The notes: a model not told the origin generated them from the sequence alone. 64,000 nt of DNA from an uncultured Myxococcales bacterium (GCA_903847405.1 CAINDP010000153.1:4121-68120), one strand, 5' to 3'. Shown: positions 22,952-58,316, counted from the first letter of the stretch. Program-made: numbers and translations.

Positions 22952-25095
<2,144 letters not shown>

Positions 25096-25099
<4 letters not shown>

Positions 25100-26901: not shown

Positions 26902-26977
26902 CGAAACCCCCTCGCGGCGCGGGTAGCATAACCGAACCGCGCGTGTCCTTGTCATCCGGGTTTCGGGGGTCGAAAAC

Positions 26978-28455: not shown

Positions 28456-28514
28456 GATGCCTCCGCGGCCCGGGGGGAGCGTGTCCCCCCGGGCCGTCCA
28501 GGTCGCACCCTGCC

Positions 28515-28919: not shown

Positions 28920-28976
28920 CACCGGACCTCCTGGGCTGCAAGTACCAGCCCCCCACGGGCCGGCAAGGATTGTTGA

Positions 28977-28994
28977 TTGCGAGCGCCGTGCCAC
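28977..28994 (-). promoter_or_regulatory. sigma-54 (-24/-12) promoter TGGCAC-N5-TCGCA reading toward 28919
   Basis: Minus-strand sequence TGGCACggcgcTCGCAA; GG and GC spaced as in consensus TGGCAC-N5-TTGCA; about 55 nt upstream of start codon; NtrC-type activator gene immediately upstream. Confidence 0.55.
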
Positions 28995-29078
28995 GGGGAA
29001 AAGTATTTCACAAACACCCGTAGTCCTTGCGGTATCGCGATTTTCAGCCCGGGATGTCTGCCCGGCGCCCCCGGAACC

Positions 29079-29117
29079 TCGACGTTTTCGTCGAAGCCTC
29101 TCGACGTCCCGGTCGAA
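29079..29117. promoter_or_regulatory. two adjacent inverted repeats (TCGACG-TTTT-CGTCGA and TCGAC-N6-GTCGA), candidate enhancer (UAS) for the sigma-54 promoter about 100-130 nt downstream on minus strand
   Basis: Perfect palindromes read directly; same pair conserved upstream of second promoter copy near 40247..40285. Confidence 0.4.
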
Positions 29118-29124
29118 CCGGCCG

Positions 29125-32793: not shown

Positions 32794-34122
32794 TCAGGGA
32801 AAGCGGATCGCGAACCGCCGCATCTTCCGCATCAAGGTGGCCTTGTGGATTCCCAGGGCCTGGGCCGTCCGCACGCGGTGTCCGCCATTTTCCGCCAGCG
32901 CGGCACGGATGACCACCGCCTGGGCCTGGTCGAAGGCGTCGGAGGTCGCGGGCCCGGGAGGCAGGTCCGGAAGCGGCCCCCGGGCGATTTCCGGCGGAAG
33001 GCAGCACACGTCGATGTTCGGCCCGCGGCACAGCACGAACGCGTGCTCGATCGCGTGTTCCAGTTCGCGGATGTTCCCGGGAAAGTCGTATCGCAGCAGG
33101 GCGTCCAGCGCGTTCGGCGTCACCCCCCGGATCTCCCGGCCGGTCTGGGCAGCGAACAACTGAATGAAGTGGCGGACCAGCAGGGGGATGTCTTCCTTGC
33201 GGTCCCGCAACGCCGGCAGTTCGATCCGCACGACGTTCAGGCGATAGAACAGGTCGTCCCGGAACCGGCCCTCGGCCATCAACTGCCGCAGGTCCCGGTT
33301 CGTCGCGGTGACGACCCGTGCATCCGCCTTCACCGTTCGCGAGGACCCCAGGGGCTGGTATTCCTTCTCCTGCAGCACCCTCAGCAGTTTCACCTGCAGG
33401 GCCGTCGAGATATCCCCGATTTCGTCCAGGAACAGGGTCCCCCCCTGGGCCGCCGCGAACCGCCCGATCCGATCGTGCCGGGCGTCGGTGAAGGCACCGG
33501 CCTTGTGGCCGAACAGTTCGGATTCCAGCAGCGTGTCCGGCAGGGCGGCGCAGTTCAGGGCAACGAAAGGCCGATCCCGACGAGGGCTGCCGTCGTGGAT
33601 CGCCCGGGCGAACAGTTCCTTGCCCGAACCGCTGGGTCCCTGGATCAGCACCGTGCTGCCGGCCGCTGCGATATCCGGCAGGACGCGCAGGATTTCCTGG
33701 ATCCGGTGGCTCTTGCTGACGATGTCGCCCACCCGGAACCGTTCGCGCAACTGGCGCCGCAACAGTTCCAGTTCGGACAGGTCGCGAAAGGTTTCGACCC
33801 CGCCCACGGCCCGTCCCGAGGCGTCCTTCAACACCGCCGTCGAGATGCTGAGGGGCTTTTCCGTACCATCCCGCGCGCGCATCGTCACCCGAACGTCCAC
33901 GGCCTCACGCCCCGAACCCATCGTCGATCGAAGGGCGCAGCGCCGCGCGCAGGCGTCCGTCCGAAAGACCTCGCTGCACTGCCGCCCGAGGGCCTCGTCG
34001 CGCGTGAAGCCGGTGATGGCGTGGGCGGCCCGGTTCCAGGACGTGATCCGCCACTGGTCATCCACGGTGAAGACGCCGTCGGCGATGGAGTCCAGGATGG
34101 GATCGGTGCGGTCAGTCGGCAT
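32794..34122 (-). CDS. sigma-54-dependent transcriptional activator with N-terminal PAS domain
   Basis: PAS (ILDSIADGVFTVDDQWRITSWNRAAHAITGF), AAA+ Walker A GPSGSGKE, ESELFGHKAGAFTDA, GAFTGA-like, C-terminal Fis HTH; divergent from mrp paralog. Confidence 0.85.
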   Translation of the reverse strand: MPTDRTDPILDSIADGVFTVDDQWRITSWNRAAHAITGFTRDEALGRQCSEVFRTDACARRCALRSTMGSGREAVDVRVTMRARDGTEKPLSISTAVLKDASGRAVGGVETFRDLSELELLRRQLRERFRVGDIVSKSHRIQEILRVLPDIAAAGSTVLIQGPSGSGKELFARAIHDGSPRRDRPFVALNCAALPDTLLESELFGHKAGAFTDARHDRIGRFAAAQGGTLFLDEIGDISTALQVKLLRVLQEKEYQPLGSSRTVKADARVVTATNRDLRQLMAEGRFRDDLFYRLNVVRIELPALRDRKEDIPLLVRHFIQLFAAQTGREIRGVTPNALDALLRYDFPGNIRELEHAIEHAFVLCRGPNIDVCCLPPEIARGPLPDLPPGPATSDAFDQAQAVVIRAALAENGGHRVRTAQALGIHKATLMRKMRRFAIRFP

Positions 34123-34229
34123 CGGAACCTCCGGCCACGGGCATGGTCGCAAAATCGCGACCACGCTTCAAGGATTGCTTTGATGCACGGATGCGAATAA
34201 CTTGCAGCCGCGGATAGCGGAGGCCCCCC

Positions 34230-35168
34230 ATGGGATGCGGTTGCGGCGACGGGCAGGACACAGGCGGGTGCGGCGGACACGAGCACGGACAGACCTTCCA
34301 GCCCGATGACATGGCCCGCGCGGCGATGCGGCGGATCCCCCACAAGATCCTGGTGATGAGCGGCAAGGGAGGCGTCGGCAAGACCACCGTGGCCGTCAAC
34401 CTGGCCTACGCACTGGCGGCCGCCGGCCACAAGGTCGGGATCGTGGACGCGGACCTGCACGGGCCCGACGTCCCGCTGATGACCGGGGTCGAGGGACTGC
34501 GGGCCCAGGCCAGCGACGAGGGGCTGATCCCCATCGACGCGCCGGGCGGCGTCCGCATCCTCTCGGTGTCGTCGTTCCTGGCCTCCCCTGACGCCCCGGT
34601 GATCTGGCGCGGCCCGGCCAAGGCCGGCGTCATCGCCCAGTTCCTGGGCCTGGCCGACTGGAAGGGCACCGACGTCCTGATCGTGGACTGCCCCCCCGGA
34701 ACCGGGGACGAACCCCTGTCCGTGGCCCAGATGATCCCGGATGCCGACGGCGTCGTGATCGTCACGTCGCCCCAGGGCGTGTCGCTGCTGGACAGCCGCA
34801 AGTGCGTGGGCTTCGCGCGCCAGATGGACCTGCCGGTGCTGGGGATCGTCGAGAATTTCTCGGGGTTCGAATGCCCCGGTTGCGGGCGCCGCATCGACCT
34901 GTTCAAGCGGGGCGGAGGCCGTCAGGCGGCGACCGACCTGGGCGTCCGTTTCCTGGGCAGCATCCCGATCACCGAGGCGATGGTCGAAGCGGGCGATTCG
35001 GGTCGGCCCCTGGTGGTTTCGACCCCCGACGATCCGGCGTCCCTGGTACTGACCGCGATGGCACAGGAACTGGTCGCGGACTGGGTGTCCGGCAGCGTCG
35101 GCGCGCCGATCGGCGAAGGGTGTTGCGGCAGTTGCGCGTGCCACGAACCGGTTCCCGGTCAGGACTGA
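34230..35168 (+). CDS. Mrp/ApbC/NBP35 family Fe-S cluster carrier ATPase with Cys/His-rich N- and C-termini
   Basis: Deviant Walker A SGKGGVGKTT, CPxC-type motif CPGCGRR; N-term MGCGCGDGQDTGGCGGHEHG and C-term CCGSCACHEP; SD GGAGG upstream. Confidence 0.85.
   Translation: MGCGCGDGQDTGGCGGHEHGQTFQPDDMARAAMRRIPHKILVMSGKGGVGKTTVAVNLAYALAAAGHKVGIVDADLHGPDVPLMTGVEGLRAQASDEGLIPIDAPGGVRILSVSSFLASPDAPVIWRGPAKAGVIAQFLGLADWKGTDVLIVDCPPGTGDEPLSVAQMIPDADGVVIVTSPQGVSLLDSRKCVGFARQMDLPVLGIVENFSGFECPGCGRRIDLFKRGGGRQAATDLGVRFLGSIPITEAMVEAGDSGRPLVVSTPDDPASLVLTAMAQELVADWVSGSVGAPIGEGCCGSCACHEPVPGQD
34305..35040. repeat. approx 740-bp segment about 90% identical to 46655..47395 (mrp paralog core)
   Basis: Direct nucleotide comparison of both mrp genes. 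Confidence 0.8.
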
Positions 35169-35198
35169 TCGCGCATCCGCATGGACCCGGCTCGCGGC

Positions 35199-36362
35199 TC
35201 AGCCGGGCGCCCCCGACTGCAACCCCGGCACTTCCCGGTACGCGGGACATTCCTCGCCGCTCACCACCTCCGCTGCCTGCCGCAAGGCGTCCAGCGTCTG
35301 GTACCCGACCAGCCGCGCGACCTCCTTCCGGTCCCGATCCAGGTACACGAAGACCGGGATGCCGCCGATACCGAACGACCGCGCCAGAGGCTTGCCTTCA
35401 GGGCTGGTCACGTCCACCTGGCGGATTTCCAGGGGATGCCCGTCGCACTGGTTCCGAAGGACGTTCACGGCCGGCATCATCTGCCGGCAGATCGGACAGT
35501 TGGGGGAGTAGAACTCGTACAGCACCGGCAGCGGGTCCTGGGCTGCGCCGCATTGGATGTCGACAGCGTGTTCGTCCCCACCGCCGCACGTGGCGCCTTG
35601 TGCCGGGTTCGGCGTGGCCGCGGCAGACAAATCCGGGGGCTCCGCCGCCGACGCCGATACCGGCGCCTCGGGTGGCTGGGCCAGCGCGTAGTCCAGCAGC
35701 CCCAGGCGATCGGTGGCCAGAAGGAACCCGACCACCACCAGCAGCAACCCGGTGGACTTTTCGAATACCGGAATGAACCGCCGCACCTTGCGCAGCGCCG
35801 CCAGGGCCGGCCCCGCCACCAGGGCCACCAGGACCAGCGGCACCGCGAACCCCAGCGAGTACAGGGACAGGTAGCCCATGCCCACCAGGGGATCCGAGGT
35901 CTTCAGGGAGGTGTAGGTCAGGACCGCGCCCAGGACGGATCCGATGCAGGGGCTCCAGGCGAAGGCGAAGAACAGCCCCAGCACGAAGGAATTCAGGTGG
36001 TGGAACCGCGTCTTGAACCGGCCCGCATCCAGGCCGCCGCCACCGTCCAGGCCGGGCAGTTTCAGGTAGCCCATGAACCGCAGGCCCAGCAGCAGCACCA
36101 CGAATCCGCCCAACTGCTGGAACAGCACCTTGTGGTCGACCAGCGCCCGCCCCAGGACGGTTGCCGACAGGCCCAGCAACGAGAACACCAGCGTGAACCC
36201 GGCGGCGAAGGCCAGGCTGGACACGAAGCCCCTGAAGCGGCCGCCCCCCTCCCCGCCCCCGCCCGAAAGGATCGACAGATAGATTGGGATCAGGGGCAGG
36301 ACGCACGGGGAAACGAACGTCAGCAGCCCCGCCACGAACACCGCTGCAGCGGACATCACCAT
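35199..36362 (-). CDS. CcdA/DsbD-family thiol:disulfide interchange membrane protein fused to C-terminal thioredoxin-like domain
   Basis: DsbD-beta-like TM core with conserved Cys pairs (SPCVLPLIP; AWSPCIG) and C-terminal CPICR thioredoxin-fold domain. Confidence 0.8.
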   Translation of the reverse strand: MVMSAAAVFVAGLLTFVSPCVLPLIPIYLSILSGGGGEGGGRFRGFVSSLAFAAGFTLVFSLLGLSATVLGRALVDHKVLFQQLGGFVVLLLGLRFMGYLKLPGLDGGGGLDAGRFKTRFHHLNSFVLGLFFAFAWSPCIGSVLGAVLTYTSLKTSDPLVGMGYLSLYSLGFAVPLVLVALVAGPALAALRKVRRFIPVFEKSTGLLLVVVGFLLATDRLGLLDYALAQPPEAPVSASAAEPPDLSAAATPNPAQGATCGGGDEHAVDIQCGAAQDPLPVLYEFYSPNCPICRQMMPAVNVLRNQCDGHPLEIRQVDVTSPEGKPLARSFGIGGIPVFVYLDRDRKEVARLVGYQTLDALRQAAEVVSGEECPAYREVPGLQSGAPG

Positions 36363-36399
36363 ACCGTCCTCCCTGGGACAGGGCCGATGCACCCGGGCA

Positions 36400-36612
36400 T
36401 CAGGCTTCGTCCTTCACGGCGCAAGTCCCGGCCCCACAGAGGCGGGACAGGGGACAACTGCCGACCAGGCCCGTGACGATCGGGATGATCCCCAGGGCTC
36501 CCCAGGGCGTCTGGGGACCGACGAACACCAGGCTGATCATGCCCAGGCCAGCCAGGACGCGCACCACGCGCTCGACGTTGTGGACGTTGCGGGGAAGAAG
36601 TTTCCGGAACAT
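36400..36612 (-). CDS. DUF2892 (YgaP-C-terminal-like) small membrane protein
   Basis: 70-aa product MFRKLLPRNVHNVERVVRVLAGLGMISLVFVGPQTPWGALGIIPIVTGLVGSCP matches the small 2-TM proteins usually linked to rhodanese. Confidence 0.5.
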   Translation of the reverse strand: MFRKLLPRNVHNVERVVRVLAGLGMISLVFVGPQTPWGALGIIPIVTGLVGSCPLSRLCGAGTCAVKDEA

Positions 36613-36862
36613 CGGGACCTCCAGGTTGTTGGCCACCTGCGCAGGTTGCAACGGGGCAGGCACGACCCGCGCTTCGGGTCGCACCTCGGCAAGCCTCGCC
36701 GGGACCTGACCTCCAAACATTACCTCATGGATATATTTCGCGCAAGCGATATTTAGAAATTCTTTCCACCTTCCTTCATCGGAAGACCGCCTTGACATCC
36801 GCATCGCTCTCCTTACTTTCCATTCACGACATATGCCGCCCGTGGCATCATGGAGGTGCGGA

Positions 36863-37480
36863 ATGGTTCGGACAGTCGCGAACTTCGACGATCTGACGGC
36901 GGCGACCGGCGGACTGAAGGGCCCCTCGGTGGTGGCGTTCTTCGGCGACTTTTCGGAAAAGTCGCGCCGGGCCTGGCCGGTATTCGAGGCCTTCTGCAAG
37001 GCACACCCGGAACTGGATGTGCACCTCGTCGACCTTGACAGGGTCCGGGACGTGCACCGGCGCCTCGGCGTCACGCTGGCCCCGACGGTCCTGCTGATGC
37101 GCGACGGCGCCGTTCATCAGCAACTCGTGGGTGTGCAGACGGACGCGGACTACCAGGCGGCCCTGCTGCCTCACACCAGACCGGCGCCCGGGCCGCAGGC
37201 GGGCGCAACCGCACACCCGTCCCACCGGGTACTGGTGTACACGGGCCCGGGCTGCTCCTGGTGCACCCGCGTGAAGGCCTACCTGCGCCAGCGCAACGTG
37301 TCCTTCACCGAGATCGACGTGTCCCTGGAACCGGCCCAGGCCCAGGCCCTGGTGCGAAAGACCGGCCAGACCGGGGTTCCCCAGTTGGACATCGACGGCC
37401 GCTACGTCGTCGGCTTCGACAAGGCCCGGATCGACGCCCTGCTGGGACTGGCGCCGCAGGCTTCCGCAGGCACCCACTGA
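36863..37480 (+). CDS. thioredoxin-like domain fused to glutaredoxin-like (YruB-type) domain protein
   Basis: N-terminal Trx-like region then glutaredoxin fold with CSWC active site (VLVYTGPGCSWCTRVKAYL...GVPQLDIDGRYVVGFD). Confidence 0.65.
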   Translation: MVRTVANFDDLTAATGGLKGPSVVAFFGDFSEKSRRAWPVFEAFCKAHPELDVHLVDLDRVRDVHRRLGVTLAPTVLLMRDGAVHQQLVGVQTDADYQAALLPHTRPAPGPQAGATAHPSHRVLVYTGPGCSWCTRVKAYLRQRNVSFTEIDVSLEPAQAQALVRKTGQTGVPQLDIDGRYVVGFDKARIDALLGLAPQASAGTH

Positions 37481-37620
37481 CCTCCGAGGATGGAACGACC
37501 ATCGGGCGCTCGATTGGGAAATGCTGCCAGTTCACGTTTGTGAGCGATACCTGCGCTTGACCGAACCGGATGGATACGGGAATATGCCCACCATTCCACC
37601 CGGACGCAGGAGGTTCGGCC

Positions 37621-39081
37621 ATGCGCATCGCCTTCATCCAGGACTCCGGCATGAACGAGTCCGCGGCGCTGCTGATCCTGTCGGGCCTGCTGAAACTGGG
37701 GGGGCATTCGACCCGGCTGTTCATCGACCACGACGAACGGGATCTGTTCGGCGCGCTGCGCCGGTTCGACCCCTGCCTGATCCTGGTCGCGATCGACATC
37801 GGCGGCCACCACTGGGGCCTGGGCATGGCATCGCGGGTGGCCCATGAAATGCGCGCGCCCCTGGTGGTCGTGGGCACGTACCCGACCCTCGAACTGGAAA
37901 CCGTGCTGGGCCGCCCCGAGTTCCGGTACGTCATCCCGGGGGAATGCGACGTCGCGGTGCCGGCCCTGGTGGACGCCCTGACGTCGAAAACCCCCGATTT
38001 CGGCGCAGTCCCGGGCCTGCACTGGCGCGATATCGGCGGGGAATGGCGTCGGAACGCGCTGCCGCCGTACCTCCAGGACCTCGACACCCTTCCCGCGCCG
38101 GATGTGTCCCTCTTCGAACCCTACCCCTACCTCCTCCAATTCGGGGTTCGCCGGTTCGTTTCGGGACGGGGATGTGCCAATCGCTGCAGTTACTGCTACA
38201 ACAACGACCTCAGCCGGCGGACCCGATCCCAGGGCCGGTACGTCCGACGCAAGAGCGCGGCGCCGTTCGTGGCCGAAATCGCTGCATCCCTGTCGAAGTA
38301 CCCGGCCCACCACGTCCACATGGGCGACGACCTCTTCACGCATGATCCCGCCTGGCTGCGCGCATTCGCCCCCCTTTACCGCCGCACCGTCGGCGTGCCC
38401 TTCACCTGCAACGCCACGCCCATGAGCCTCACGTCCGAAACGGTGTCCCTGCTGGCCGAGGCGGGCTGTCACGGCGTGGCCGTCGGCGTCGAGTCGGGTG
38501 ACCAGGTCCTCCGCGAACGGATCCTGGAACGGCCCGCCCGCGACGAAGACCTCCGGGCCGGGTGCGAACGTGTCCGCAAGTCGGGCATCCTGCTGGCCGC
38601 TTTCAACATGATCGCCATGCCCGGGGAAACCGTGGACCAGGCCCTTGCGACGATCCGGTTGAACCGGGAACTGGGCGTGCAGGTCCCCCGCATCAATTTC
38701 ACGTTCCCACTGCGGGGCACCCGCCTGACGGATCGCGCCATCGAGGAAGGATTCCTGACGAAGGAGGAACAGGCCGAAATCGAGCGCGAGGTCACCGCGG
38801 GACGGTTCAAACTGCGCCCCTGCTTCCGGTCCCCGGACAACGCCCTCCTCGAACGCCTGTTCCGGGTTTTCCAGTTTTCGATCATGACAGGCCTTGGCGA
38901 GTTCCAGATTCGCCAGTTGATCCGCAGCGATCTGGCGACACGGGCAATCCCCTTCCGGATGCTGATGCTGTACATGGAACGTTCCTTCTTCCGGGTACAG
39001 TGGCTGCCGGGCCTGCAGATGTACCTGCACGCGGGCCATCCGCTGGGGCGCACCAAGAACTTCAACAACTTCATCCCGTGA
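37621..39081 (+). CDS. B12-binding domain-containing radical SAM protein
   Basis: AGGAGG SD before ATG 37621; N-terminal cobalamin-binding-like domain; radical SAM CANRCSYC (CxxxCxxC). Confidence 0.8.
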   Translation: MRIAFIQDSGMNESAALLILSGLLKLGGHSTRLFIDHDERDLFGALRRFDPCLILVAIDIGGHHWGLGMASRVAHEMRAPLVVVGTYPTLELETVLGRPEFRYVIPGECDVAVPALVDALTSKTPDFGAVPGLHWRDIGGEWRRNALPPYLQDLDTLPAPDVSLFEPYPYLLQFGVRRFVSGRGCANRCSYCYNNDLSRRTRSQGRYVRRKSAAPFVAEIAASLSKYPAHHVHMGDDLFTHDPAWLRAFAPLYRRTVGVPFTCNATPMSLTSETVSLLAEAGCHGVAVGVESGDQVLRERILERPARDEDLRAGCERVRKSGILLAAFNMIAMPGETVDQALATIRLNRELGVQVPRINFTFPLRGTRLTDRAIEEGFLTKEEQAEIEREVTAGRFKLRPCFRSPDNALLERLFRVFQFSIMTGLGEFQIRQLIRSDLATRAIPFRMLMLYMERSFFRVQWLPGLQMYLHAGHPLGRTKNFNNFIP

Positions 39082-39136
39082 GGAATGGACGTCCGGATGG
39101 CGCGACACCCGCCCGGCCGGTTATGATGCCGCCTGC

Positions 39137-39379
39137 GTGAACGCGAGGAGCCCCATGAGCGAGTGCGCTGCGATCGAGTTCCTGGTGGAGCAGTTGCCCG
39201 GCGGCAGGTACGTCGCCCGATCCGTCGGCGCCTGCGTGACCACCGAAGCCGACACTCTGGACGAACTCCGCGTCGCCGTCCGGGAAGCCGTGTGCTGCCA
39301 CTTCGACGAAGGCTGCCAGCCTGGCGCGATCCGACTCCGGTTCATCACCGTGGTTCGCGAGGAAGTGGTCCCCGTATGA
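39137..39379 (+). CDS. hicB: HicB-family antitoxin-like protein
   Basis: Small protein with HicB_lk-type N-terminus (AIEFLVEQLPGGRYVARSVGACVTTEADTLDELRVAVREAV); immediately upstream of and overlapping hicA. Confidence 0.5.
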   Translation: MNARSPMSECAAIEFLVEQLPGGRYVARSVGACVTTEADTLDELRVAVREAVCCHFDEGCQPGAIRLRFITVVREEVVPV

Positions 39380-39618
39380 AACATCCGCGGGATCTGTCCG
39401 CCGACGAACTGGTGCACCGGCTGAAACCCCTGGGCTATCGCGTGACCCGACAGGTCGGAAGTCATATGCGACTGACCACCGAGCAAGGCGGGCAGCACCA
39501 CATCACGATCCCGGCCCACAAGCAGGTGACTATCGGCAAGATCAACGCGTTGCTGTGGGATCTGGTGCAGCACTTCGGGATGGACCGGAAGGAACTGATG
39601 GTGCTGCTTTTCGGTTGA
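39376..39618 (+). CDS. hicA: HicA-family mRNA interferase toxin
   Basis: 80 aa; YcfA/HicA pattern LKPLGYRVTRQVGSHMRLTTEQGGQHHITIPAHKQVTIGKIN. Confidence 0.65.
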   Translation: MKHPRDLSADELVHRLKPLGYRVTRQVGSHMRLTTEQGGQHHITIPAHKQVTIGKINALLWDLVQHFGMDRKELMVLLFG

Positions 39619-39669
39619 CGGTGGCCCGGGGGAAGCGGGTTCCCCCGGGCCATCCAGGTCGGCCCCCGC

Positions 39670-40086
39670 CTACTGGGCCTTCCCCTTGCGGATCTGGGCG
39701 TTGTCGCACACCCCGTCGCCGTCCGCGTCGACGAAGCCGGCGCCGTGCAGCCCCTTGCCCTTGCCTGCCGCCTGGCCGGCGCCCTTGCCCTGGCCCTTGC
39801 CCTTGGACATGCCCTTGCCCTGGCCGCCGGTACCCTTCTTGTCGCAGATCCCGTCGCCATCGGCGTCCACGAAGCCCGCGCCCGAGCCGTCCTTGAGCTG
39901 GACCTGGGCCTGGTCCTTGGCCTGGACCTGGGTCTGGTCCTTGGCCTGATCCTGGGCCTGGGTCGCCGTGCCCGACTGGACGCCCTGCCCCTTCCCCTTC
40001 ACCGCGTCCGCGTCATCCGCGAGCGCCACCGCGGGCAGGCCCGCCATTGCCACCACCAGGAACAGGCTCTTCAAGTTCGTCTTCAT
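39670..40086 (-). CDS. small secreted Lys/Gln/Gly-rich protein with two DxDGDGxCD motifs (paralog of 28515..28919)
   Basis: Signal MMKTNLKSLFLVVAMAGLPAVALA; GFVDADGDGICDKKG and GFVDADGDGVCDN. Confidence 0.6.
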   Translation of the reverse strand: MKTNLKSLFLVVAMAGLPAVALADDADAVKGKGQGVQSGTATQAQDQAKDQTQVQAKDQAQVQLKDGSGAGFVDADGDGICDKKGTGGQGKGMSKGKGQGKGAGQAAGKGKGLHGAGFVDADGDGVCDNAQIRKGKAQ

Positions 40087-40143
40087 CACCGGACCTCCTG
40101 GGTTTCAAGCACCAGCCCCCCACGGGCCGGCAAGGAATGTCCA

Positions 40144-40161
40144 TTGCGAGCGCCGTGCCAA
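40144..40161 (-). promoter_or_regulatory. sigma-54 promoter TGGCACggcgcTCGCAA (second copy)
   Basis: Identical -24/-12 elements to copy at 28977; UAS palindromes at approx 40247..40285. Confidence 0.55.
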
Positions 40162-40341
40162 CTGGATGCATATTTCGTAAGCGTTGGTTATGTCTGCTGT
40201 ATGCGCCCTTGCGACCACCGGCTGTCGTCCGGTCGCCTCCGGGTTCCCGACGTTTTCGTCGAAGACCCTCGACGTCCCGGTCGACCCGACGATCACCCAA
40301 GGCCCGGCTTCCGGATCTGGTCGGAAACTTCAGGCCGCGCG

Positions 40342-41670
40342 CTATCCGCATCCGCCCTTGGTCACGGTCTTCTTCTGCAACCTGACCCGCTTCGTGTAGG
40401 TCGGGGCGGCGCCGTGGCCTGCCTCGTGTACCGGGTCATAGCCAGTACCCGTGGCGTCCGTCGCAAGCGCGCAGGCCGGCACGTATTCCTTTCGGGCCCG
40501 GTCGGGGTGAGCCGACGGGTTCCTGTCACCGACTGCGGCAACGAAGCGCCAGGCCAGGCGCTCCCCTCCCGTTTCCCCGGACAGTTTCTGCGCCACGCAC
40601 GGACTCGGCTGGTAGCGGTCCAGCCAGCCGTCGATCCCGCCCTCGATGACGTACAGGTTCAGGACCCCCTGGGCCCTCAGGTCCTTCCAGGCCTGCGTCG
40701 CAACCGCCTCGCCGTTGGACACGACGAACACGATGGTGTTTTCGCTGGCGCCCAGCAGCGTCCTGACGAACGCCGGGTCCCGCGCATCGCCCGGTTCGAT
40801 CCGTCGCGCACCGGACAGGTGGAACTGGTTGAAGTCCGCCTCCCCGCGCACGTCCAGCACATCCACCTTCAGCGTGAAGTCCTTCTTCAGGTCGACGACC
40901 TCGGCGGGGTCCACGAAGATTTCGCGCTCGCCCAGTTGCCGGTCCCCCTCCGACGCCACCCAGCCCCACCGGTCCTCGACCGTGGGCTGCCCCAGGACGG
41001 CCGTGGCGACCGCCAGGGCGACCAGGGTCCCTCCCCCCGCGATCCGCGCCCGGCTGCGCGGGACCAGCGGGATGTCCTTCCAGGATGTGCCCGCGCCGAA
41101 GTAGGCTTCCGCGATTTCCGCACCCCAGAACATCACCAGCGCCATCAGGACCAGCAGGACCACGACCACGCCGTAAGGGAGGCCCAGCCAGTCCGGCACG
41201 GTGAACCGACCCAGGAACGTGGACTGGAAGAACGGCTCGAAGGACTGCACGGTTTCGCCGAACGCATAGACGCCGCCGAACACGCCCAGGACGAAGAACA
41301 CCCCGTCCAGCTTCAGCGTCGAGGCCGCCACCAGGGAGGTTCCCGGGCAGAACCCGCCGACGATGAACCCGACGCCCATGATCAGCCCGCCGACGATCCC
41401 CGGCACAAGGTACGTCGGGTTGACCCACACGTGGCTGAAGTCCAGCAGGCCCAGCGCCGAGGACAGGAAAATCAGGACGGCCGCGACCACGATGCCGGTG
41501 AACATGACCTTCAGCACGGTCATTTCGCGCAGGTAGAACTGCGCCGCCAATTTGCGGGAGTCGCCGAAGCCCGACACCTCGAGGGCCGCGCCGAAGCCCA
41601 CGCCGATCAGCAGAAAGACGAGGTCGTATGCAAGGGTGCCGGCCAGCGGCGCCAGGTTGAACGGAGCCAT
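40342..41670 (-). CDS. YeeE/YedE family sulfur-compound transporter half fused to C-terminal rhodanese-like domain
   Basis: Internal ATG MAPFNLAPLAG; multi-TM PF04143-like region with GxxxGxCPG-type motif (GGFCPGTSL); C-terminal rhodanese-like fold (active-site Cys position appears to be Ser). Confidence 0.7.
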   Translation of the reverse strand: MAPFNLAPLAGTLAYDLVFLLIGVGFGAALEVSGFGDSRKLAAQFYLREMTVLKVMFTGIVVAAVLIFLSSALGLLDFSHVWVNPTYLVPGIVGGLIMGVGFIVGGFCPGTSLVAASTLKLDGVFFVLGVFGGVYAFGETVQSFEPFFQSTFLGRFTVPDWLGLPYGVVVVLLVLMALVMFWGAEIAEAYFGAGTSWKDIPLVPRSRARIAGGGTLVALAVATAVLGQPTVEDRWGWVASEGDRQLGEREIFVDPAEVVDLKKDFTLKVDVLDVRGEADFNQFHLSGARRIEPGDARDPAFVRTLLGASENTIVFVVSNGEAVATQAWKDLRAQGVLNLYVIEGGIDGWLDRYQPSPCVAQKLSGETGGERLAWRFVAAVGDRNPSAHPDRARKEYVPACALATDATGTGYDPVHEAGHGAAPTYTKRVRLQKKTVTKGGCG

Positions 41671-41681
41671 GTCGCCACCTC

Positions 41682-42203
41682 CTAGTTCCACAACCGGCGC
41701 ACGAAGTACGCCAGGGCATACCCGCCACCGAAGACCGCGAACATGAACGCGAAACTGCCGACCGACAGCACGGCGCCGCCGCTGAGGGCCTGGCCGGACG
41801 TGCAGCCGCGGGCCAGGCGGGCGCCGTACCCCATGACTGCGCCGCCCAGGAGGGCGTAGGCCCAACGCGCACGATTCGTGATGTGGGGCCCGCGACGGGT
41901 TTCCACCCGGAACCGTCGGTTCGCGATCCCGGAAATCATCCCGCCCAGGAAGGTCCCCAGCAGCATGAACACACCCGCGTTGTCCAGCGCGTTGCGGCTG
42001 CCGCCGCCGACCTCGGCGAAGTAGGCCACGCGGTCGACGTGCTCCGGGACGAACAGGTTCAGGATCGCGACCTGCACGTGGCCGATGGCCCCGGAAGCGC
42101 CCAGCCCGTTGCCGGTGATGTAGAAGGACAGGAACAGCACGACGCCCAGCAGGGCGCCGCCCACGTAGGGGTTGACGTAGGGACGCGGGGGCTTGCTAGT
42201 CAT
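41682..42203 (-). CDS. YeeE/YedE family sulfur-compound transporter half
   Basis: 4-TM protein with conserved ARLARGCTSG motif typical of YedE/YeeE (TsuA-like) repeats. Confidence 0.75.
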   Translation of the reverse strand: MTSKPPRPYVNPYVGGALLGVVLFLSFYITGNGLGASGAIGHVQVAILNLFVPEHVDRVAYFAEVGGGSRNALDNAGVFMLLGTFLGGMISGIANRRFRVETRRGPHITNRARWAYALLGGAVMGYGARLARGCTSGQALSGGAVLSVGSFAFMFAVFGGGYALAYFVRRLWN

Positions 42204-44460
42204 GGGACCCTCCCTCGGCGGACGGGACGTCGATGTCCTCCCACCCGTCGATCATCGCGCTGACATTCGAGAACACGGTCCGTCCGGTCGTCGTCAGGTA
42301 CAGGTGCAGCACGAAGAAGGACAGGAACAGCCAGGAACCCAGGTTGTGCAGGGGCGCGACCACGGTCAGCCCGCCGATGGAAGACGCAAAGTCGGGCCAG
42401 CGCGAGGCCCCCCAGATCAGCACGCCGGTGACCACCTGGAAGGGGAACAGCACGTTCAGCAGCCCCAGGTACGTGATCTGCTGCAGCGGGTTCATCTTGC
42501 GGTCGGCGGTCTTCGCGGGGTGCGGCTGGCCCACGAAGATGCCCTGCAGGTAGTACTGGGCCTGCGCCGCCACCCGCCCGGGCAGGTCGTGACGCCCGGG
42601 GACGAACTGCCGGATCGCATCGCTGGCCAGGTGGTAGAACAGCGACAGGAAGGCGTTGACGATCATCACGACGGCAACGATGTTGTGAAGCTTCACCGCC
42701 AGCGGCAGGCCCACCAGCGTCCAGTTGCCGCCGAAATGGACCTCGACCCCCGTGACCATCAGCACCAGGATGCTGGAGGCCATCAGCCAGTGCCAGACGC
42801 GCTCATAGGCGGTGTACAGGTAGGCCTTGCGCGTCGGACGATGGCCATGGGCAAAGCGGCCGCGCGCCCGGAGCCGCAGCCCGCCGTGCACCGCGACCCC
42901 GGCCAGGACGCCAGCGAACGCCAGGAAGCCGAGGCGGTCGGTCCAGGTGCCTTGCGAGTGGCCGAAGACGTGGAAGGACGCTCCCGAATCCCGCTGCAGG
43001 ACCAGGCCATGGCCGTCCGGCGACGCCACGACGCCTCCGAAGGCCAGGCCGCCTCCCTCGGGAACCGTCGGGACGACGCCGCCGGGATAGGGAGCGGAGG
43101 CCAGGGGAATCGCCGCGTTCAGACGGGAATCCTCGGCGTGACAACCGGTGCAGTCCCTCTGCACCGCGGGACCGGACACGACGTCGTGGTTCACGGGCCG
43201 CGGAACGATCGCGGTCCGGATTTGCGGATCCGCGACGCCTCCAGCCGCCAGGCGTGACCGGAGAACCGCGACCTTTGCCGGTGTGTCCAGGCGCACCTCC
43301 GCGACGTCCAGGCGGCCATCGCCGTTGCCATCCAACGCGCGCACCACCTCGTTCGCGTAGGTGTCACCCTCGAACCATGCCGCCCGGACGGCGGCAAACG
43401 GAATCTCGTCACCGGCAGGACCCGACGCCCAGAACCACCGGGTGACCAGGTTGAAGGGTGCGATGCGCATCCCCTCGGCAGGGTCCGTGCGGGCCAAAAG
43501 GAACGGCGCGTACCCCGTGGCGAAGGCCGTGTTCAGCGACTGGTCGTCGGCGCGGTCCAGGCCGCGGTACTCCACGCGCGGACCGCCACCGGGCAGCATC
43601 ACCGTGGCGTCCACCGAGCGCGCCGCCGGGCCCGCGAGGGTCGGCACGTGGCAGGCACGGCAGTCCAGCGTGTCCATGTGGCGTTTCGTGTAGGGCAGGA
43701 ACGCGTGGACCTTCAGGGGGTCGTGGCAGGACCGGCAGGTCGCGGCGACGAGTTCATGGTCCGGCCGACGCAGGAACTGGGACAGGGCAATCTTGCGCGG
43801 ATCGTTCAGCAGGAAGTCCAGCGCCGTGTGCTTCACGTCGGCCTTCGCCGGGTTGTTCCGGGCGAAGTGGCAGTCCGTGCACGCGACCAGGCGTCGCGAA
43901 TGGACGTCCCAAGGATTGGTCCGCGCCGCCTTGTCCTTCAGATTCAGCCACGAATCGCCGACGGCCTGGGGCGACAGGATTTCGCCGGTGTCGCGGGTCA
44001 GGGCGTAGGTGTGCCCACCGGACGCACCCGGGACCGCCGACTCGAAGTCGTCAGGAATCGTCAGGGGCTCCGTCCCGCCGTGGACGATCCCGTGGCAGAA
44101 GGCGCAGTTTTCGTCCCGCGGGGCCCGGATGCGGATCGCCTCCCGGCGCAGCAGGCCCGTTTCGTCGAAGACCGTCGGGTCGGTCGGCAGGCGACTGCCC
44201 TCGAAGTGGCACTCGGCGCACGTCGCCTGCCGCCCGTCCCGGGAGTGCGGGTTGTGGGCGTCGATGTAGGCGGCGTCATGGCAGGCGCCACAGGTCTTTC
44301 CCGACGACGGGGCGCCGCCGGACACCGCGATTCGCTGCCCCGCCTCGTCCAGGATCGGGAACGCCGGGTGCATCGGGTTCGCGGGCCCCTGGGCACGGGC
44401 CTCCGGCGCGAAGATGGTACCGACCACTGCCGCAAGAATGACCGCAGGAATCCGTCTCAT
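42196..44460 (-). CDS. heptaheme c-type cytochrome fused to C-terminal membrane di-heme cytochrome b-like domain
   Basis: Signal MRRIPAVILAAVVGTIFAPEARAQG; CGACH, CAECH, CAFCH, CTDCH, CRSCH, CRACH, CTGCH; C-terminal approx 230 aa with 5-6 TM helices and conserved His (cytochrome b561/NrfH-partner-like). Confidence 0.7.
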   Translation of the reverse strand: MRRIPAVILAAVVGTIFAPEARAQGPANPMHPAFPILDEAGQRIAVSGGAPSSGKTCGACHDAAYIDAHNPHSRDGRQATCAECHFEGSRLPTDPTVFDETGLLRREAIRIRAPRDENCAFCHGIVHGGTEPLTIPDDFESAVPGASGGHTYALTRDTGEILSPQAVGDSWLNLKDKAARTNPWDVHSRRLVACTDCHFARNNPAKADVKHTALDFLLNDPRKIALSQFLRRPDHELVAATCRSCHDPLKVHAFLPYTKRHMDTLDCRACHVPTLAGPAARSVDATVMLPGGGPRVEYRGLDRADDQSLNTAFATGYAPFLLARTDPAEGMRIAPFNLVTRWFWASGPAGDEIPFAAVRAAWFEGDTYANEVVRALDGNGDGRLDVAEVRLDTPAKVAVLRSRLAAGGVADPQIRTAIVPRPVNHDVVSGPAVQRDCTGCHAEDSRLNAAIPLASAPYPGGVVPTVPEGGGLAFGGVVASPDGHGLVLQRDSGASFHVFGHSQGTWTDRLGFLAFAGVLAGVAVHGGLRLRARGRFAHGHRPTRKAYLYTAYERVWHWLMASSILVLMVTGVEVHFGGNWTLVGLPLAVKLHNIVAVVMIVNAFLSLFYHLASDAIRQFVPGRHDLPGRVAAQAQYYLQGIFVGQPHPAKTADRKMNPLQQITYLGLLNVLFPFQVVTGVLIWGASRWPDFASSIGGLTVVAPLHNLGSWLFLSFFVLHLYLTTTGRTVFSNVSAMIDGWEDIDVPSAEGGSHD

Positions 44461-45929
44461 CGGCGACCTCCCGTCGTCAGCGGGTCGCCGTCGTAGCCCA
44501 GGGCCTTCCAGTCCATTCGTGTCGTCCTTTCATCGAGGTTGCCCGAGGCGGCTGCGCCTGTGCGCTCGGGCAGGCCGTGGCAATCGGTGCACTGCAGCGC
44601 GGCTTCCTTCGGCGCGACCATGTGTGACAGCGGCCAGTGCATCGCCGTCTGCGCGAAGCCATACTCGCCGCTGTACTGGATCCCCGAAGCATCCGCGCCC
44701 AGCCGCAACGCCTTCTCCCAGTCGAAGTCGTGCCAGAAGCCGCCCGCACCGCTGGTCACGGGGGGCAACAGGATGTCCCGTTTCCGGTCGTAGGGTTGCA
44801 GGGCCCGGTGGACCTTGAACGGCCAGATTTTCGCCGTGCGATCGTGGATGTTCCCGCGGGGCCGATTGATGGTTGTCGTCGTCGCCGGATCCATCGGGTC
44901 GCCCAGCAGGTATCGGTCCACGGTGCCGTTGAACCAGTCGTACTCGGGCACGATGTCGTGGTCGTACACGAACTCGCCCTTGATCTTCAGGTAGGTGTGC
45001 GGGTCGTCGGGACGGTTCGGGTCGCCGCCCTTGCTCCAGTCCCAGAACGTCTTGGTGGGCAGGCGGCGGGCGTAGGTCGGGACATGGCAGGTGGTGCAGG
45101 CGACGCTGTCAAGGTGCGTGTTGATCCGCGCATCCTGGTGCGGAGGCGCCTTGTGGCAGTCGACGCAGCCGATGCCGCCCTCGTCCGTGACGCTGACCGA
45201 AAACGCGCGGCCACGAATGAGGTGCTTTTCCGTCCGATGGCAGTCGATGCAAAGGAACCCGCTCTGCCCCATGTGGACGTCGTCGTCCCGGGTCGGGTTT
45301 TCCAGGCTGCTGTCCAGATCGCCGTGCTTCACCCCCTGGCCACCGCCGCCGTAACTGTGGCACACCGAGCAGTTTTCCCGTTTCGGGAAGCCCACCGATT
45401 TCGCCACGGCCAGCAGGTCCACACCCTTGGCCGGGAGGCCCTCGTCACCCTTCACGTAGGAACCCGAACGCTCGTGGCAGACCAGGCAGTCGACCGACTC
45501 GGCGCGGTTGAAGTCGAACTTCTCGTCCTTCCAGCCGTACCCCGCGTGGCACTTCGTGCACGAGGCCCAGTTGCCGGTGATGTTGATGCAGAAGTTGTTC
45601 AGCAGGTTCTTCTTGCCGATTCGCATCGTCCCGTCGTGTCCCGGGACCGTGACAGGATCGCCCAGCCACTGCCAGTGCGCCGTCTGCATCAGGTCCGAGG
45701 CGGCCTGGGGGTGGCAGTTCAGGCAGGCCTTCGTGACTTCCTGCGGCGTCCCGAAGGCCTCCGTGAAGAAGGGCGCGTGGTCCAGATGGGTGCGGACCCG
45801 CTTCCGGAAATCCGCCCGCGCGGCCGCGTCGGCCGGGGGATGGACGGGCGACGCGACGACCCAGGCGACGACTCCCGCAATCACCAGTGCCAGGACCACG
45901 ACCCACATCTGCTTGAACCGGCCAGTCAT
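44457..45929 (-). CDS. octaheme c-type cytochrome, tetrathionate reductase (OTR) family-like
   Basis: Signal anchor MTGRFKQMWVVVLALVIAGVVAWVVA; eight CxxCH (CLNCH, CTKCH, CLVCH, CSVCH, CIDCH, CVDCH, CTTCH, CTDCH); size about 490 aa as in Shewanella Otr. Confidence 0.65.
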   Translation of the reverse strand: MTGRFKQMWVVVLALVIAGVVAWVVASPVHPPADAAARADFRKRVRTHLDHAPFFTEAFGTPQEVTKACLNCHPQAASDLMQTAHWQWLGDPVTVPGHDGTMRIGKKNLLNNFCINITGNWASCTKCHAGYGWKDEKFDFNRAESVDCLVCHERSGSYVKGDEGLPAKGVDLLAVAKSVGFPKRENCSVCHSYGGGGQGVKHGDLDSSLENPTRDDDVHMGQSGFLCIDCHRTEKHLIRGRAFSVSVTDEGGIGCVDCHKAPPHQDARINTHLDSVACTTCHVPTYARRLPTKTFWDWSKGGDPNRPDDPHTYLKIKGEFVYDHDIVPEYDWFNGTVDRYLLGDPMDPATTTTINRPRGNIHDRTAKIWPFKVHRALQPYDRKRDILLPPVTSGAGGFWHDFDWEKALRLGADASGIQYSGEYGFAQTAMHWPLSHMVAPKEAALQCTDCHGLPERTGAAASGNLDERTTRMDWKALGYDGDPLTTGGRR

Positions 45930-46255
45930 CACGACGCCTCCTGTATGCGAATCTCGGCGGTGATCGCATCGCCCGACAGGCATTTCAGGACTTCGCCGAG
46001 TCGTTCGAGGTTCAACCTGTACCAGGCGAAGCCGCTGGCCCGCCGCACCTCGACCAGGCCGTTCATCCGCAGAATGGCCAGTTGGCCGGAAACGACGGCC
46101 TGGGGGGTTTTCAGGACCTCGGTCAACTGGCTGACGTTGGCCTCGCCTTCCCGCAGCACGGCCAGCAGTTCCAGCCGTATCGGGTGCGCCACGGCGCGCA
46201 GCAGGGTCGCCATCCGAACCGCCTTCGTCGGGTCCAGGGCCAGGGATCCCGTCAT
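45929..46255 (-). CDS. ArsR/SmtB family transcriptional regulator
   Basis: Winged HTH (LLRAVAHPIRLELLAVLREGEANVSQLTEVLKTPQAVVSGQLAILRMNGLVEV); stop overlaps cytochrome start. Confidence 0.8.
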   Translation of the reverse strand: MTGSLALDPTKAVRMATLLRAVAHPIRLELLAVLREGEANVSQLTEVLKTPQAVVSGQLAILRMNGLVEVRRASGFAWYRLNLERLGEVLKCLSGDAITAEIRIQEAS

Positions 46256-46393
46256 GGTCCACCTCCTTGCTCACCCAGCCGAGCGCAAAGCCGCCTCGGG
46301 TGCTTCCGACAGCCCCGAGCGCATCGCACGGGGTCCGGGACGGCACGGGGGTGAAGCAGGAGACGTGCCATGGACCGGCGATGTATCGAGATA

Positions 46394-46405
46394 TTGATAT
46401 ATCAG
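46394..46405. promoter_or_regulatory. perfect AT-rich palindrome TGATATATCA in arsR/mrp divergent intergenic region (candidate ArsR operator/-10)
   Basis: 10-bp perfect palindrome inside a 25-nt AT-rich island in 70% GC DNA, about 130-150 nt upstream of arsR start. Confidence 0.35.
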
Positions 46406-46579
46406 CGACTTGCGCAGAGCAGCGTCCGACAGGGGCGCTCGCCAGAGGTCGCACCGATGCCTCCTCAGGTTGCAGTTCTGCGACCTTGATGGGAGTAAAC
46501 GCTGCGTTCCCGGTTGAAGGCTTGCGTTAGTGGGCAGATGCTAATAACTTCCCCTGGGTCAAACGGTGGAGGCTACCCC

Positions 46580-47938
46580 ATGGGCTGCGGTTTTCGAAAC
46601 GATCAAGGCGCGGACGGCATTGACGGAAACGGGCCCGAGGCGTTGGCCAAGCCCGACGACCTGGCCCGCGCTGCGATGCGTCTGATTCCCCATAAGGTGC
46701 TGGTGATGAGCGGGAAAGGGGGCGTCGGCAAGACGACGGTCGCCGTCAACCTCGCGTACGCCCTGGCTGCCGCCGGCCACAAGGTCGGGATCGTGGACGC
46801 GGACATGCACGGTCCCGATGTACCGCTGATGACCGGGATCGAGGGACTGCGGGCCGAGGCCAGCGACGAGGGGTTGATCCCCATCGAGGCTCCCGGCGGG
46901 GTCCGCGTCCTGTCGGTGTCCTCGTTCCTGACCTCCCCCGACGCCCCGGTGATCTGGCGCGGTCCGGCCAAGACCGGCGTCATCGCCCAGTTCCTGGGCC
47001 TGGCCGACTGGGAAGGCACCGAGGTGCTGATCGTGGACTGCCCCCCCGGAACCGGGGACGAACCCCTGTCCGTGGCCCAGATGATCCCGGACGCCGACGG
47101 CGTCGTGATCGTGACCTCCCCGCAAGGCGTGTCGCTGCTGGACAGCCGGAAGTGCGTCGGCTTCGCCCGCCAACTGGACCTGCCTGTGCTGGGCATCGTC
47201 GAAAACTTCTCGGGGTTCGCATGCCCGGGTTGCGGCCGCCGCATCGACCTGTTCAAGCGGGGCGGGGGCCAGCGCGCGGCGGCGGAACTGGGCATCCGCT
47301 TCCTGGGCAGCATTCCCATCACCGAGGCGATGGTCGAGGCAGGCGATTCGGGGCACCCCCTGGTGGCTTCGACCCCTGACGACCCCGCATCCCAGGCCTT
47401 GGCGGCCATCGCCCTGGCGATAACGGCCGACTGGGCGACCTCGGACGCCGTCGCGGCGGACTCCGATGCGGACCGGGCTCTTCCGCCGAAAGCCCTGGGC
47501 ACCCTGCGCCTCGGCGTGACGGCCGAGGACGACGCGGGCCTCGACGCCGTGATTTCCGGCCACTTCGGCCACGCTCCGGTCGTGATGGTGGTCGAGGTCC
47601 AGGACGGGAAGGTCCTGTCGGTGAAGCCGGTGGTCAACCCCGGCGCGACCAACCACCAGCCGGGCCAGATGCCCCGATTCCTGAAGAGCCTGGACGTGGA
47701 CGTGGTGCTGACGGGAACGATGGGCGAGCACGCGAAGTCCATGTTCGACGCCTTCGGGATCAAGGTCGTAGGCGGAGCGGACGGCACGGTGGGCCAGGCC
47801 CTGAACGCCTGGATACGTGGGGATCTGGCTGTGTGGGTCCCCTGCGGAGCCCACGGACACCACGGCGGCGGGTGCGGCGGCCACGGGCATGATCACGCTG
47901 GCGGCGGTTGCGGAGGCCACACCTCCGGACAGGACTGA
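46580..47938 (+). CDS. Mrp/NBP35 family ATPase fused to C-terminal NifX/NifB-type (FeMo-cofactor-binding-like) domain and His/Gly/Cys-rich tail
   Basis: SGKGGVGKTT, CPGCGRR; C-terminal domain GHFGHAPVVMVVEVQDGKV...VDVVLTGTMGEHA; tail CGAHGHHGGGCGGHGHDHAGGGCGGH. Confidence 0.85.
   Translation: MGCGFRNDQGADGIDGNGPEALAKPDDLARAAMRLIPHKVLVMSGKGGVGKTTVAVNLAYALAAAGHKVGIVDADMHGPDVPLMTGIEGLRAEASDEGLIPIEAPGGVRVLSVSSFLTSPDAPVIWRGPAKTGVIAQFLGLADWEGTEVLIVDCPPGTGDEPLSVAQMIPDADGVVIVTSPQGVSLLDSRKCVGFARQLDLPVLGIVENFSGFACPGCGRRIDLFKRGGGQRAAAELGIRFLGSIPITEAMVEAGDSGHPLVASTPDDPASQALAAIALAITADWATSDAVAADSDADRALPPKALGTLRLGVTAEDDAGLDAVISGHFGHAPVVMVVEVQDGKVLSVKPVVNPGATNHQPGQMPRFLKSLDVDVVLTGTMGEHAKSMFDAFGIKVVGGADGTVGQALNAWIRGDLAVWVPCGAHGHHGGGCGGHGHDHAGGGCGGHTSGQD
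46655..47395. repeat. approx 740-bp segment about 90% identical to 34305..35040
   Basis: Direct nucleotide comparison. Confidence 0.8.
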
Positions 47939-47982: not shown

Positions 47983-48012
47983 CTTGACGCGCCATCATGG
48001 ACCATTCATATT
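47983..48012 (+). promoter_or_regulatory. candidate sigma-70-type promoter TTGACG-N17-CATATT upstream of SQR-like gene, embedded in direct repeat CATATTTC(x2)
   Basis: -35/-10-like hexamers with 17-nt spacer about 60 nt before ATG 48077; AT-rich island. Confidence 0.35.
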
Positions 48013-58299: not shown

Positions 58300-58316
58300 C
58301 GGCGTGAAGGAGTCCC

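Follow-up and report, generated by a model that had tools for sequence, protein, structure and literature searches.

Why should one bacterium carry two copies of what looks like the same ATPase gene, nearly identical through their cores and different at both ends? The question is raised by a 64,000-nt stretch of DNA from an uncultured Myxococcales bacterium (hereafter the window; positions are counted from its first letter), which contains two Mrp/NBP35-type genes that we call mrpA and mrpB. We consider it probable (about 0.72) that the two encode paralogous MrpORP-type (Orp9-like) Fe-S carrier ATPases in an ORP (orange protein) island and have undergone complementary module loss. The homology of the two genes, their domain content and motif states, the selection acting on them, the order of events and the presence of ORP partner genes are established by the analysis. 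The two genes and the parts of mrpB are as follows.

34230-35168, plus strand: mrpA, a short MrpORP-like paralog of 312 aa without the Di-Nase domain
46580-47938, plus strand: mrpB, a two-domain MrpORP-like paralog of 452 aa
~46688-47422, plus strand: P-loop domain of mrpB
~47543-47815, plus strand: Di-Nase/NifX domain of mrpB
~47837-47935, plus strand: Cys/His tail of mrpB

The two genes and their terminal modules

Genes were called from codon-position GC (the window is ~69% GC) and then checked against Pfam and NCBIfam. The longest ORF (open reading frame) of mrpB begins with TTG at 46514; the ATG at 46580 is preferred, with an upstream GGAGG conserved in five homologous loci. An initial annotation had put the identity of the pair at about 90% over about 740 bp, an estimate borne out by ungapped comparison of the collinear segments 34305-35045 and 46655-47395, in which 659 of 741 nt (88.9%) are identical and the longest identical run is 65 nt. 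The 82 differences split 13/7/62 over codon positions 1/2/3, and the proteins share 91% identity over codons 26-272, rising to 100% over codons 149-189. Similarity is spread over the whole Mrp/NBP35 domain, beyond the P-loop, and self-BLASTn extends it further (34164-35046 against 46511-47396, 84.7% over 891 nt), taking in ~66 nt upstream of both ATGs, including the ribosome-binding site.

Both products match PF10609 (mrpA: E 1.1e-86, 290.7 bits; mrpB: E 5.7e-86, 288.4 bits; gathering cut-off 27.1), and both retain the deviant Walker A motif GKGGVGKT and C215-P-G-C218, whose columns 215 and 218 are nearly invariant among relatives. The Fe-S carrier ATPase type first proposed for the pair stands for both as Mrp/NBP35 proteins that differ in terminal modules and adjacent regulator. 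The NifX-type domain assigned to one copy is PF02579 (Nitro_FeMo-Co/Di-Nase; E 9.8e-19, residues 322-412), present in mrpB and absent from mrpA, and the terminal strings quoted in the annotation are all found in the translations.

At its N-terminus, mrpA carries three cysteines and two histidines (C3-x-C5-x8-C14 with H17/H19). Its C-terminus is a GCCGSCACHEPVPGQD tail, homologous to the tails of two-domain relatives, of which the Cys-rich GCCGSCACHE is conserved in the mrpA ortholog A' (P0005; locus L011). The N-terminal Cys motif of mrpB is degenerate (MGCGFRND..., C3 only): mrpB alone carries C5F, C14I and H17N, with no change in length. All close relatives keep the N-terminal CxCx8C motif, which has been lost in mrpB. 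The mrpB tail includes C422 and C432, nearly invariant and family-wide in Di-Nase proteins.

Nearly all relatives are two-domain proteins. In a neighbour-joining tree of the core, mrpA, A', mrpB, L002 and L003 (the last two being both copies of one Myxococcales metagenome-assembled genome, bin-5834) form a tight clade, nested in a two-domain group whose members all start MGCGCGD. The last codons of mrpA (CAC GAA CCG GTT CCC GGT CAG GAC TGA; HEPVPGQD-stop) can be aligned to the very end of L002 (HDPVPEQD-stop) and, in part, to that of mrpB (..SGQD-stop). Because mrpA is nested among two-domain proteins and its tail aligns with the L002 C-terminus, it is a former two-domain protein that lost ~140 codons in frame, and with them the Di-Nase domain, and kept its Cys-rich tail. 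Module loss was complementary: mrpA lost the Di-Nase domain by in-frame deletion, keeping the N-terminal CxCx8C and the Cys-rich tail, and mrpB kept the Di-Nase domain and lost its N-terminal Cys/His ligands through point substitutions. The NifX fusion and His/Cys tail that the annotation singled out are both present in mrpB, but it is the fused form that is ancestral and the short copy that is derived. The tail is a family feature that also occurs on a stand-alone Di-Nase protein in the window (57539-57958).

A' shows a small change of its own (L011 10919-10939, corresponding to 35148-35168 in the window), where the CCG codon that lies six codons ahead of the ancestral stop has been replaced by TAG. 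As the VPGQD-stop codons beyond the TAG are still readable, this looks like a recent C-terminal truncation that left the Cys tail intact.

Place in the ORP system and control regions

For both copies, the best curated family is NCBIfam MrpORP (NF041136). The mrpB match scores 388.3 bits over the full length of the profile (positions 2-364/365), and that of mrpA 324.8 bits over the P-loop part only (positions 1-249/365); both lie well above the ApbC model, which returns only ~200 bits (cut-off 348). Database relatives carry the NCBI name MrpORP. Among solved structures, those nearest to the core are the archaeal Fe-S carrier 3KB1/2PH1 and Cfd1 (6G2G), whereas the Di-Nase part matches TM/MTH1175-type proteins. 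Compared with ApbC/Mrp proteins (Salmonella ApbC, Escherichia coli Mrp, Archaeoglobus 3KB1/2PH1), the pair has the same core fold and motifs, and mrpA is single-domain as they are; however, neither window copy has a DUF59/FeS-assembly N-domain, and mrpA bears Cys-rich N- and C-terminal extensions, inherited from a two-domain ancestor.

MrpORP (Orp9; Pardoux et al. 2019, PMC6345978) is a characterised two-domain Mrp/NBP35 protein (DVU2109 in Desulfovibrio vulgaris Hildenborough, Dde_3202 in D. alaskensis G20). Its traits include Fe-S binding, transfer to Orp3/Orp4, polar localisation and transcription dependent on sigma54, OrpR and integration host factor (IHF). The Di-Nase motifs CXHFGHCE (at the start) and CDH (at the end) have been proposed to hold a [3Fe-4S] cluster (PMC6345978), and the N-terminal extension of the reference proteins has the pattern CX3CX20CXC or CXCX5CX4C. 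The window pair shares the P-loop domain, deviant Walker A and CxxC with MrpORP in both copies, the Di-Nase domain in mrpB and N-terminal cysteines in mrpA, where the CxCx8C motif is non-canonical relative to the reference patterns. The genomic region is also reminiscent of the ORP system, encoding an OrpR-like activator and Orp3/Orp4/Orp8-like proteins.

32794-34122, minus strand: OrpR-like enhancer-binding protein with PAS, sigma54 AAA+ and helix-turn-helix domains (Pfam; longest ORF to 34164)
57539-57958, plus strand: stand-alone Di-Nase protein (Orp8/Orp5-like; PF02579 E 5.8e-19) with a PC-x-H...GGGCG-x-H tail as in mrpB
58308-59165, plus strand: Orp3-like MinD/CbiA-type ATPase with a ferredoxin insert (Pfam CbiA/ParA and Fer4)
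59162-60073, plus strand: Orp4-like MinD/CbiA-type ATPase with a ferredoxin insert (Pfam CbiA/ParA and Fer4)

Both mrp copies lie in one ORP-like island with a single set of Orp3/Orp4/Orp8-like partner genes, all within the window but not in one operon; the different client systems that the annotation suggested for the two would be hypothetical. The Orp3/Orp4-like ATPases are 54-57% identical to the products of genes directly following mrpORP in L016/L018, loci from more distant Myxococcota that have a canonical mrpORP-DiNase-orp3-orp4 operon with sigma54 promoters upstream; they are likely Fe-S client proteins. By homology, each Mrp protein would dimerise and bridge a [4Fe-4S] cluster on its CPGC motif, and the deviant Walker A ATPase would drive hand-over of the cluster to apo-proteins. 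The most plausible clients would be the Orp3/Orp4-like ferredoxin-ATPases at 58.3-60.1 kb, and some division of labour may exist between mrpA and mrpB.

OrpR (DVU2106), an Fe-S PAS sigma54 activator of the orp operons, has a [4Fe-4S] triad of conserved PAS cysteines, C52/C61/C65, along with D/E54 (PMC8359166). The regulator beside mrpA, called as a 442-aa protein in other assemblies, has the same PAS-AAA+-HTH architecture and, in the 442-aa form, a C49-x8-C58-x3-C62 triad with identical spacing and an acidic residue at +2 (E51), which suggests that activators of the OrpR type also use Fe-S-based redox sensing outside Desulfovibrio. The divergent regulators named in the annotation, a PAS sigma54 activator beside mrpA and an ArsR-family gene beside mrpB, are both as described. 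The elements between these regulators and the mrp genes are listed below.

34145-34162: perfect palindrome GGTCGCAAAATCGCGACC, in the 107-nt intergenic region that separates mrpA from the OrpR-like gene
34164-34229, plus strand: mrpA upstream block with a TTGCTT-N17-TAACTT promoter-like element and a GGAGG ribosome-binding site
46511-46579, plus strand: homologous mrpB upstream block with TTGCGT-N17-TAACTT and GGAGG
46468-46485: one-mismatch (degenerate) palindrome GGTTGCAGTTCTGCGACC upstream of mrpB, ~100 nt upstream of the divergent sigma54 promoter
46355-46370, minus strand: sigma54-type promoter TGGCACGTCTCCTGCT preceding the ArsR operon (a one-mismatch match, function predicted)
45929-46255, minus strand: ArsR/SmtB-family regulator (Pfam and NCBIfam), first gene of the divergent operon
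~40342-46255, minus strand: divergent operon encoding ArsR, multihaem cytochromes, a cytochrome b561 fusion and YeeE/rhodanese

The palindrome at 34145-34162 has no other perfect copy in the window. It is similar to the OrpR site GGGCGYRTTTTGCGCCC reported in PMC8359166 and is conserved upstream of the mrpA ortholog (L011 9915-9932), but it is one base longer, and only 68 nt separate it from the start codon of mrpA. The nearest good sigma54 promoter is instead paired with the degenerate copy and would drive the ArsR-cytochrome-YeeE operon. This promoter is conserved in L011 and L001. Between it and the degenerate palindrome lies an IHF-like stretch (46380-46409) that is rich in AT, in a genome of 69% GC, and includes the palindrome GATATATC. 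Region 46355-46485 thereby presents a classic enhancer-dependent layout of degenerate OrpR-like palindrome, AT-rich stretch and sigma54 -24/-12 element; across the window, sigma54 matches are no commoner than in shuffled sequence. The ArsR gene more likely belongs to this divergent sigma54-driven cytochrome/YeeE operon than with mrpB. As a BigR/SqrR-type persulfide sensor it was rejected, since it has a single Cys rather than two and scores 54.6 bits against a BigR cut-off of 155.

A five-locus alignment of the blocks directly upstream of the mrp genes shows conservation of TTGC.T, TA.C.T and GGAGG. We infer the TTGC.T-N17-TA.C.T element only as a putative promoter, because no E. coli-type sigma70 consensus was found upstream of the mrp genes. 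The shared leader contains no riboswitch or known RNA with an Rfam match, and none was matched anywhere in the window.

History of the pair and competing explanations

The dN/dS comparison proposed alongside the initial annotation indicates purifying selection on both copies in every part tested. Between the mrpA and mrpB cores, synonymous divergence (dS) is 0.37 and nonsynonymous divergence (dN) 0.046, giving a ratio (omega) of 0.12; the corresponding values between mrpA and A' are 0.19, 0.014 and ~0.07, and those for the mrpB Di-Nase part against relatives 0.57-0.58, 0.100-0.117 and 0.18-0.20. Asymmetric evolution of one copy was rejected, as a Tajima-type relative-rate comparison with L002 as outgroup is symmetric (37 vs 36 nt) and a skew appears only with L003.

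Quartet sites supporting AA'|B,outgroup (A and B being mrpA and mrpB) outnumber the alternatives 32:4:4 and 23:6:5, which makes the duplication, a lineage-specific one, older than the A/A' split. Of the recent duplication or gene conversion first suggested for this pair, the lineage-specific paralogy is upheld, but the event is not very recent, with a core dS of 0.37 and an origin before that split.

The duplication also copied the upstream block with its promoter-like element and ribosome-binding site, and probably neighbouring genes. Since the order of flanking genes varies from relative to relative, the event was probably segmental. In L011, the mrpA ortholog has as neighbours the genes that adjoin mrpB in the window, with the ArsR-cytochrome-YeeE operon on one side and an oxidoreductase gene on the other; this oxidoreductase gene follows the ortholog with a homologous intergenic region and promoter-like site, and its window-L011 dS of 0.41 matches that between A' and mrpB (0.40). 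Window-L011 divergence as a whole falls into two classes that switch at the rearrangement breakpoints. The low class (dS 0.15-0.29) comprises the histidine kinase, thioredoxin (Trx), OrpR-like, mrpA and DsbD genes, and the high class (dS 0.34-0.54) the YeeE, cytochrome, ArsR, oxidoreductase and thioredoxin-glutaredoxin (Trx-Grx) genes. At one junction, the block of an unknown gene U ends at 39621 and a repeat X starts at 39623, two bases past the block that adjoins DUF134 in L011. The arrangement of the island differs in each of the relatives examined, with hcp-mrp in L003/L019, mrp-DUF134 in L002 and an OrpR-like gene beside an L002-type mrp in L026. A metagenome scan for relatives gave only short contigs (L019, L026), which leave the history unsettled. 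In L003 (1635-1650, 2501-5893), the mrpORP copy lies directly downstream of hcp, with a sigma54 promoter and another enhancer-binding protein upstream; the same carrier is wired differently here.

The gene order would be accounted for by tandem segmental duplication and subsequent reciprocal loss. This scenario is attractive in view of the junction at 39621/39623, though not established, because the single-copy outside genes DUF134, DUF1847 and MBL (metallo-beta-lactamase) have a dS of 0.5-0.6 to L011 and so are as diverged as the putatively paralogous genes. This is one of several observations that weigh against our interpretation. Both copies score under the MrpORP equivalog cut-off of 450 bits, and both lie 10-23 kb from the orp3/orp4-like genes. 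The Di-Nase domain of mrpB starts with SGHFGHAP and so has neither Cys of CXHFGHCE, although its end, PCGAH, retains a Cys and His (cf. CDH), and several relatives, including proteins that NCBI names MrpORP, likewise lack the first Cys. No sigma54 -24/-12 element was found at two or fewer mismatches between the palindrome and either mrp ATG, whereas such promoters precede orp9 in D. vulgaris and the mrpORP operons of L016/L018. Pairwise dS values (A-L003 0.29, A-B 0.37, L002-L003 0.38, B-L002 0.49) fit no simple tree: mrpB is closer to mrpA than to its positional homolog L002 (0.37 vs 0.49), and mrpA is unusually close to L003 in codons 26-89 (94.8%). The duplication history is therefore reticulate, with conversion not needed for most of the identity. 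The pair further differs from characterised MrpORP in being duplicated and in its host, which is probably a member of the Myxococcota and not a sulfate reducer.

In a different account, the copies are old and have been held at ~89% identity by conversion between them. Synonymous divergence dips to 0.16-0.26 mid-core (codons 67-189), against 0.46-0.72 towards the ends of the core. In the quartet of mrpA, mrpB, L002 and L003, sites pairing each genome's two copies cluster in codons 90-259 and those pairing mrpA with L003 and mrpB with L002 cluster at the core ends, and support from the PHI test (p=0.024) and from max-chi2 with two breakpoints (p=0.046) is marginal. A database protein, P0002 (from a 2.7-kb ENA contig), matches L002 up to ~residue 270 and L003 beyond, and is either a natural recombinant between bin-5834-like paralogs or an assembly chimera. 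However, PHI on all five sequences gives p=0.28, 62 of the 82 differences are at third positions and scattered over the whole core, and strong protein constraint (dN 0.046) with a third-position GC of ~0.9 already explains much of the identity. Conversion between the window copies after the A/A' split is ruled out by the quartet counts, which show no excess of sites joining mrpA and mrpB (4-6 vs 4-5 for the alternative grouping). The gene-conversion test proposed with the first description thus yields marginal support for an older mosaic and none for later exchange, and we regard sustained conversion as unlikely.

Somewhat less probable again is that one copy arrived with its flanking block from a related lineage, with no duplication in situ. 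One route would be Campbell-type integration through a crossover in mrp, leaving direct mrp repeats around the insert, and the copies are indeed direct repeats bracketing an 11.4-kb block. The two dS classes that switch at the breakpoints and the varied arrangement of the island among relatives are what such an event might leave behind; yet tandem segmental duplication with reciprocal loss fits the same pattern, composition is uniform (~68-69% GC), no integrase, tRNA or repeat boundary was seen, and the relatives are known from fragmentary metagenome contigs only.

A further possibility, which we think quite improbable, is that mrpA and mrpB are obligate partners in a hetero-oligomeric scaffold, each supplying one half, as a bacterial counterpart of eukaryotic Nbp35/Cfd1 that would have arisen by duplication and complementary module loss. 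There, mrpA would provide the N-terminal Cys site and mrpB the Di-Nase domain, while the unusual conservation of the core (complete at codons 149-189) would be kept by the need to pair across a bridging CPGC cluster. In the eukaryotic scaffold pair, Nbp35 and Cfd1 are likewise close paralogs of which one has an N-terminal Cys site (Nbp35; here mrpA) and one does not (Cfd1; here mrpB), both have the bridging CxxC, and Cfd1 (6G2G) is among the best structural matches. However, the two pairs are of independent origin, the Di-Nase domain of mrpB is missing in Cfd1 and the CxCx8C of mrpA is unlike the Nbp35 motif.

The His/Cys-rich termini could also be read as those of metal chaperones with a different cargo (Ni, Co, Zn or a Mo/Cu-S cluster). 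In its richness in His, the tail CGAHGHHGGGCGGHGHDHAGGGCGGH resembles tails of known metallochaperones. A Mo-Cu-S cluster is bound by Orp8, the ORP system's stand-alone Di-Nase protein (PMC6345978). Against this, the bridging CxxC and the entire Mrp/NBP35 core are conserved, the family member that has been characterised both binds Fe-S clusters and passes them on, and C422 and C432 of the tail are the family-wide Di-Nase features noted above, all of which makes another metal a very unlikely primary cargo. Finally, merging of two strain variants of one gene onto one contig, conceivable with metagenome-type data and a chimeric relative such as P0002 in the databases, can be rejected with near certainty, as exact mrpA and exact mrpB recur, each with its own distinct flanking genes, in several independent assemblies from other samples, and the copies differ in domain architecture and lie 12 kb apart on one contig.

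Surrounding genes and meaning for the family

Downstream of mrpB, towards the orp-like genes, lie DUF134, DUF1847 and an MBL-fold protein, and closer to mrpB is the oxidoreductase gene shared with L011.

48077-49246, plus strand: pyridine-nucleotide-disulfide oxidoreductase (Pfam), downstream of mrpB; a promoter-like site of its own lies at 47984-48012

Identification of this enzyme as a sulfide:quinone reductase or a SelD-associated enzyme was rejected, with scores far under the cut-offs. It is followed by a gene with an FGE-sulfatase domain (49390-51099, plus strand), missing in L011, that contains an internal duplication (49836-50198 vs 50627-51080, 72-74%) and to which Pfam gives two matched stretches. 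Between the Trx-Grx fusion and unknown gene U is a B12-binding radical SAM gene (37570-39081, plus strand), which is missing from the otherwise collinear L011 stretch; its best NCBIfam models, HpnJ and ApyD, score far under their cut-offs.

The window holds a second internal duplication (28467-29153 and 39623-40321, 83% over ~700 nt). Each copy has an identical sigma54-type promoter, TGGCACGGCGCTCGCA, on the minus strand (28978-28993 and 40145-40160) and encodes a small protein, secreted and rich in Gly, Lys and Gln, that contains two FVDA[DN]GDG[IV]CD motifs. The two proteins share 81% identity and match nothing in Pfam or NCBIfam, and a third, more distant member is encoded at 28069-28554. 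Nearby, 25096-26997 on the minus strand (including 25649-26346) encodes a large secreted Cys/Asp-rich protein with repeat units of the C-x-DG-x-x-CT type and no Pfam match, and has internal DNA repeats (25756-25892 and 26044-26180). Short repeats of 82% identity (21703-22075 and 23964-24345) link the adjacent long ORFs 20475-22805 and 22397-25099 on the plus strand, suggesting that these are tandem paralogs.

Within the MrpORP-type family, paralog redundancy and repeated gain and loss of the Di-Nase domain are already known, and the present pair is otherwise an ordinary lineage-specific duplication in a known system. What sets it apart is that two 91%-identical cores that differ by their terminal modules occur in one cell and are both kept by selection. 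The mrpA/mrpB pair may therefore serve as a convenient natural experiment for domain swaps and for work on interaction and client specificity. More broadly, the locus takes the ORP/OrpR system, so far studied in Desulfovibrio alone, into an uncultured lineage that is Myxococcota-like, in which the ORP-like genes are embedded among genes of thiol and sulfur redox metabolism.

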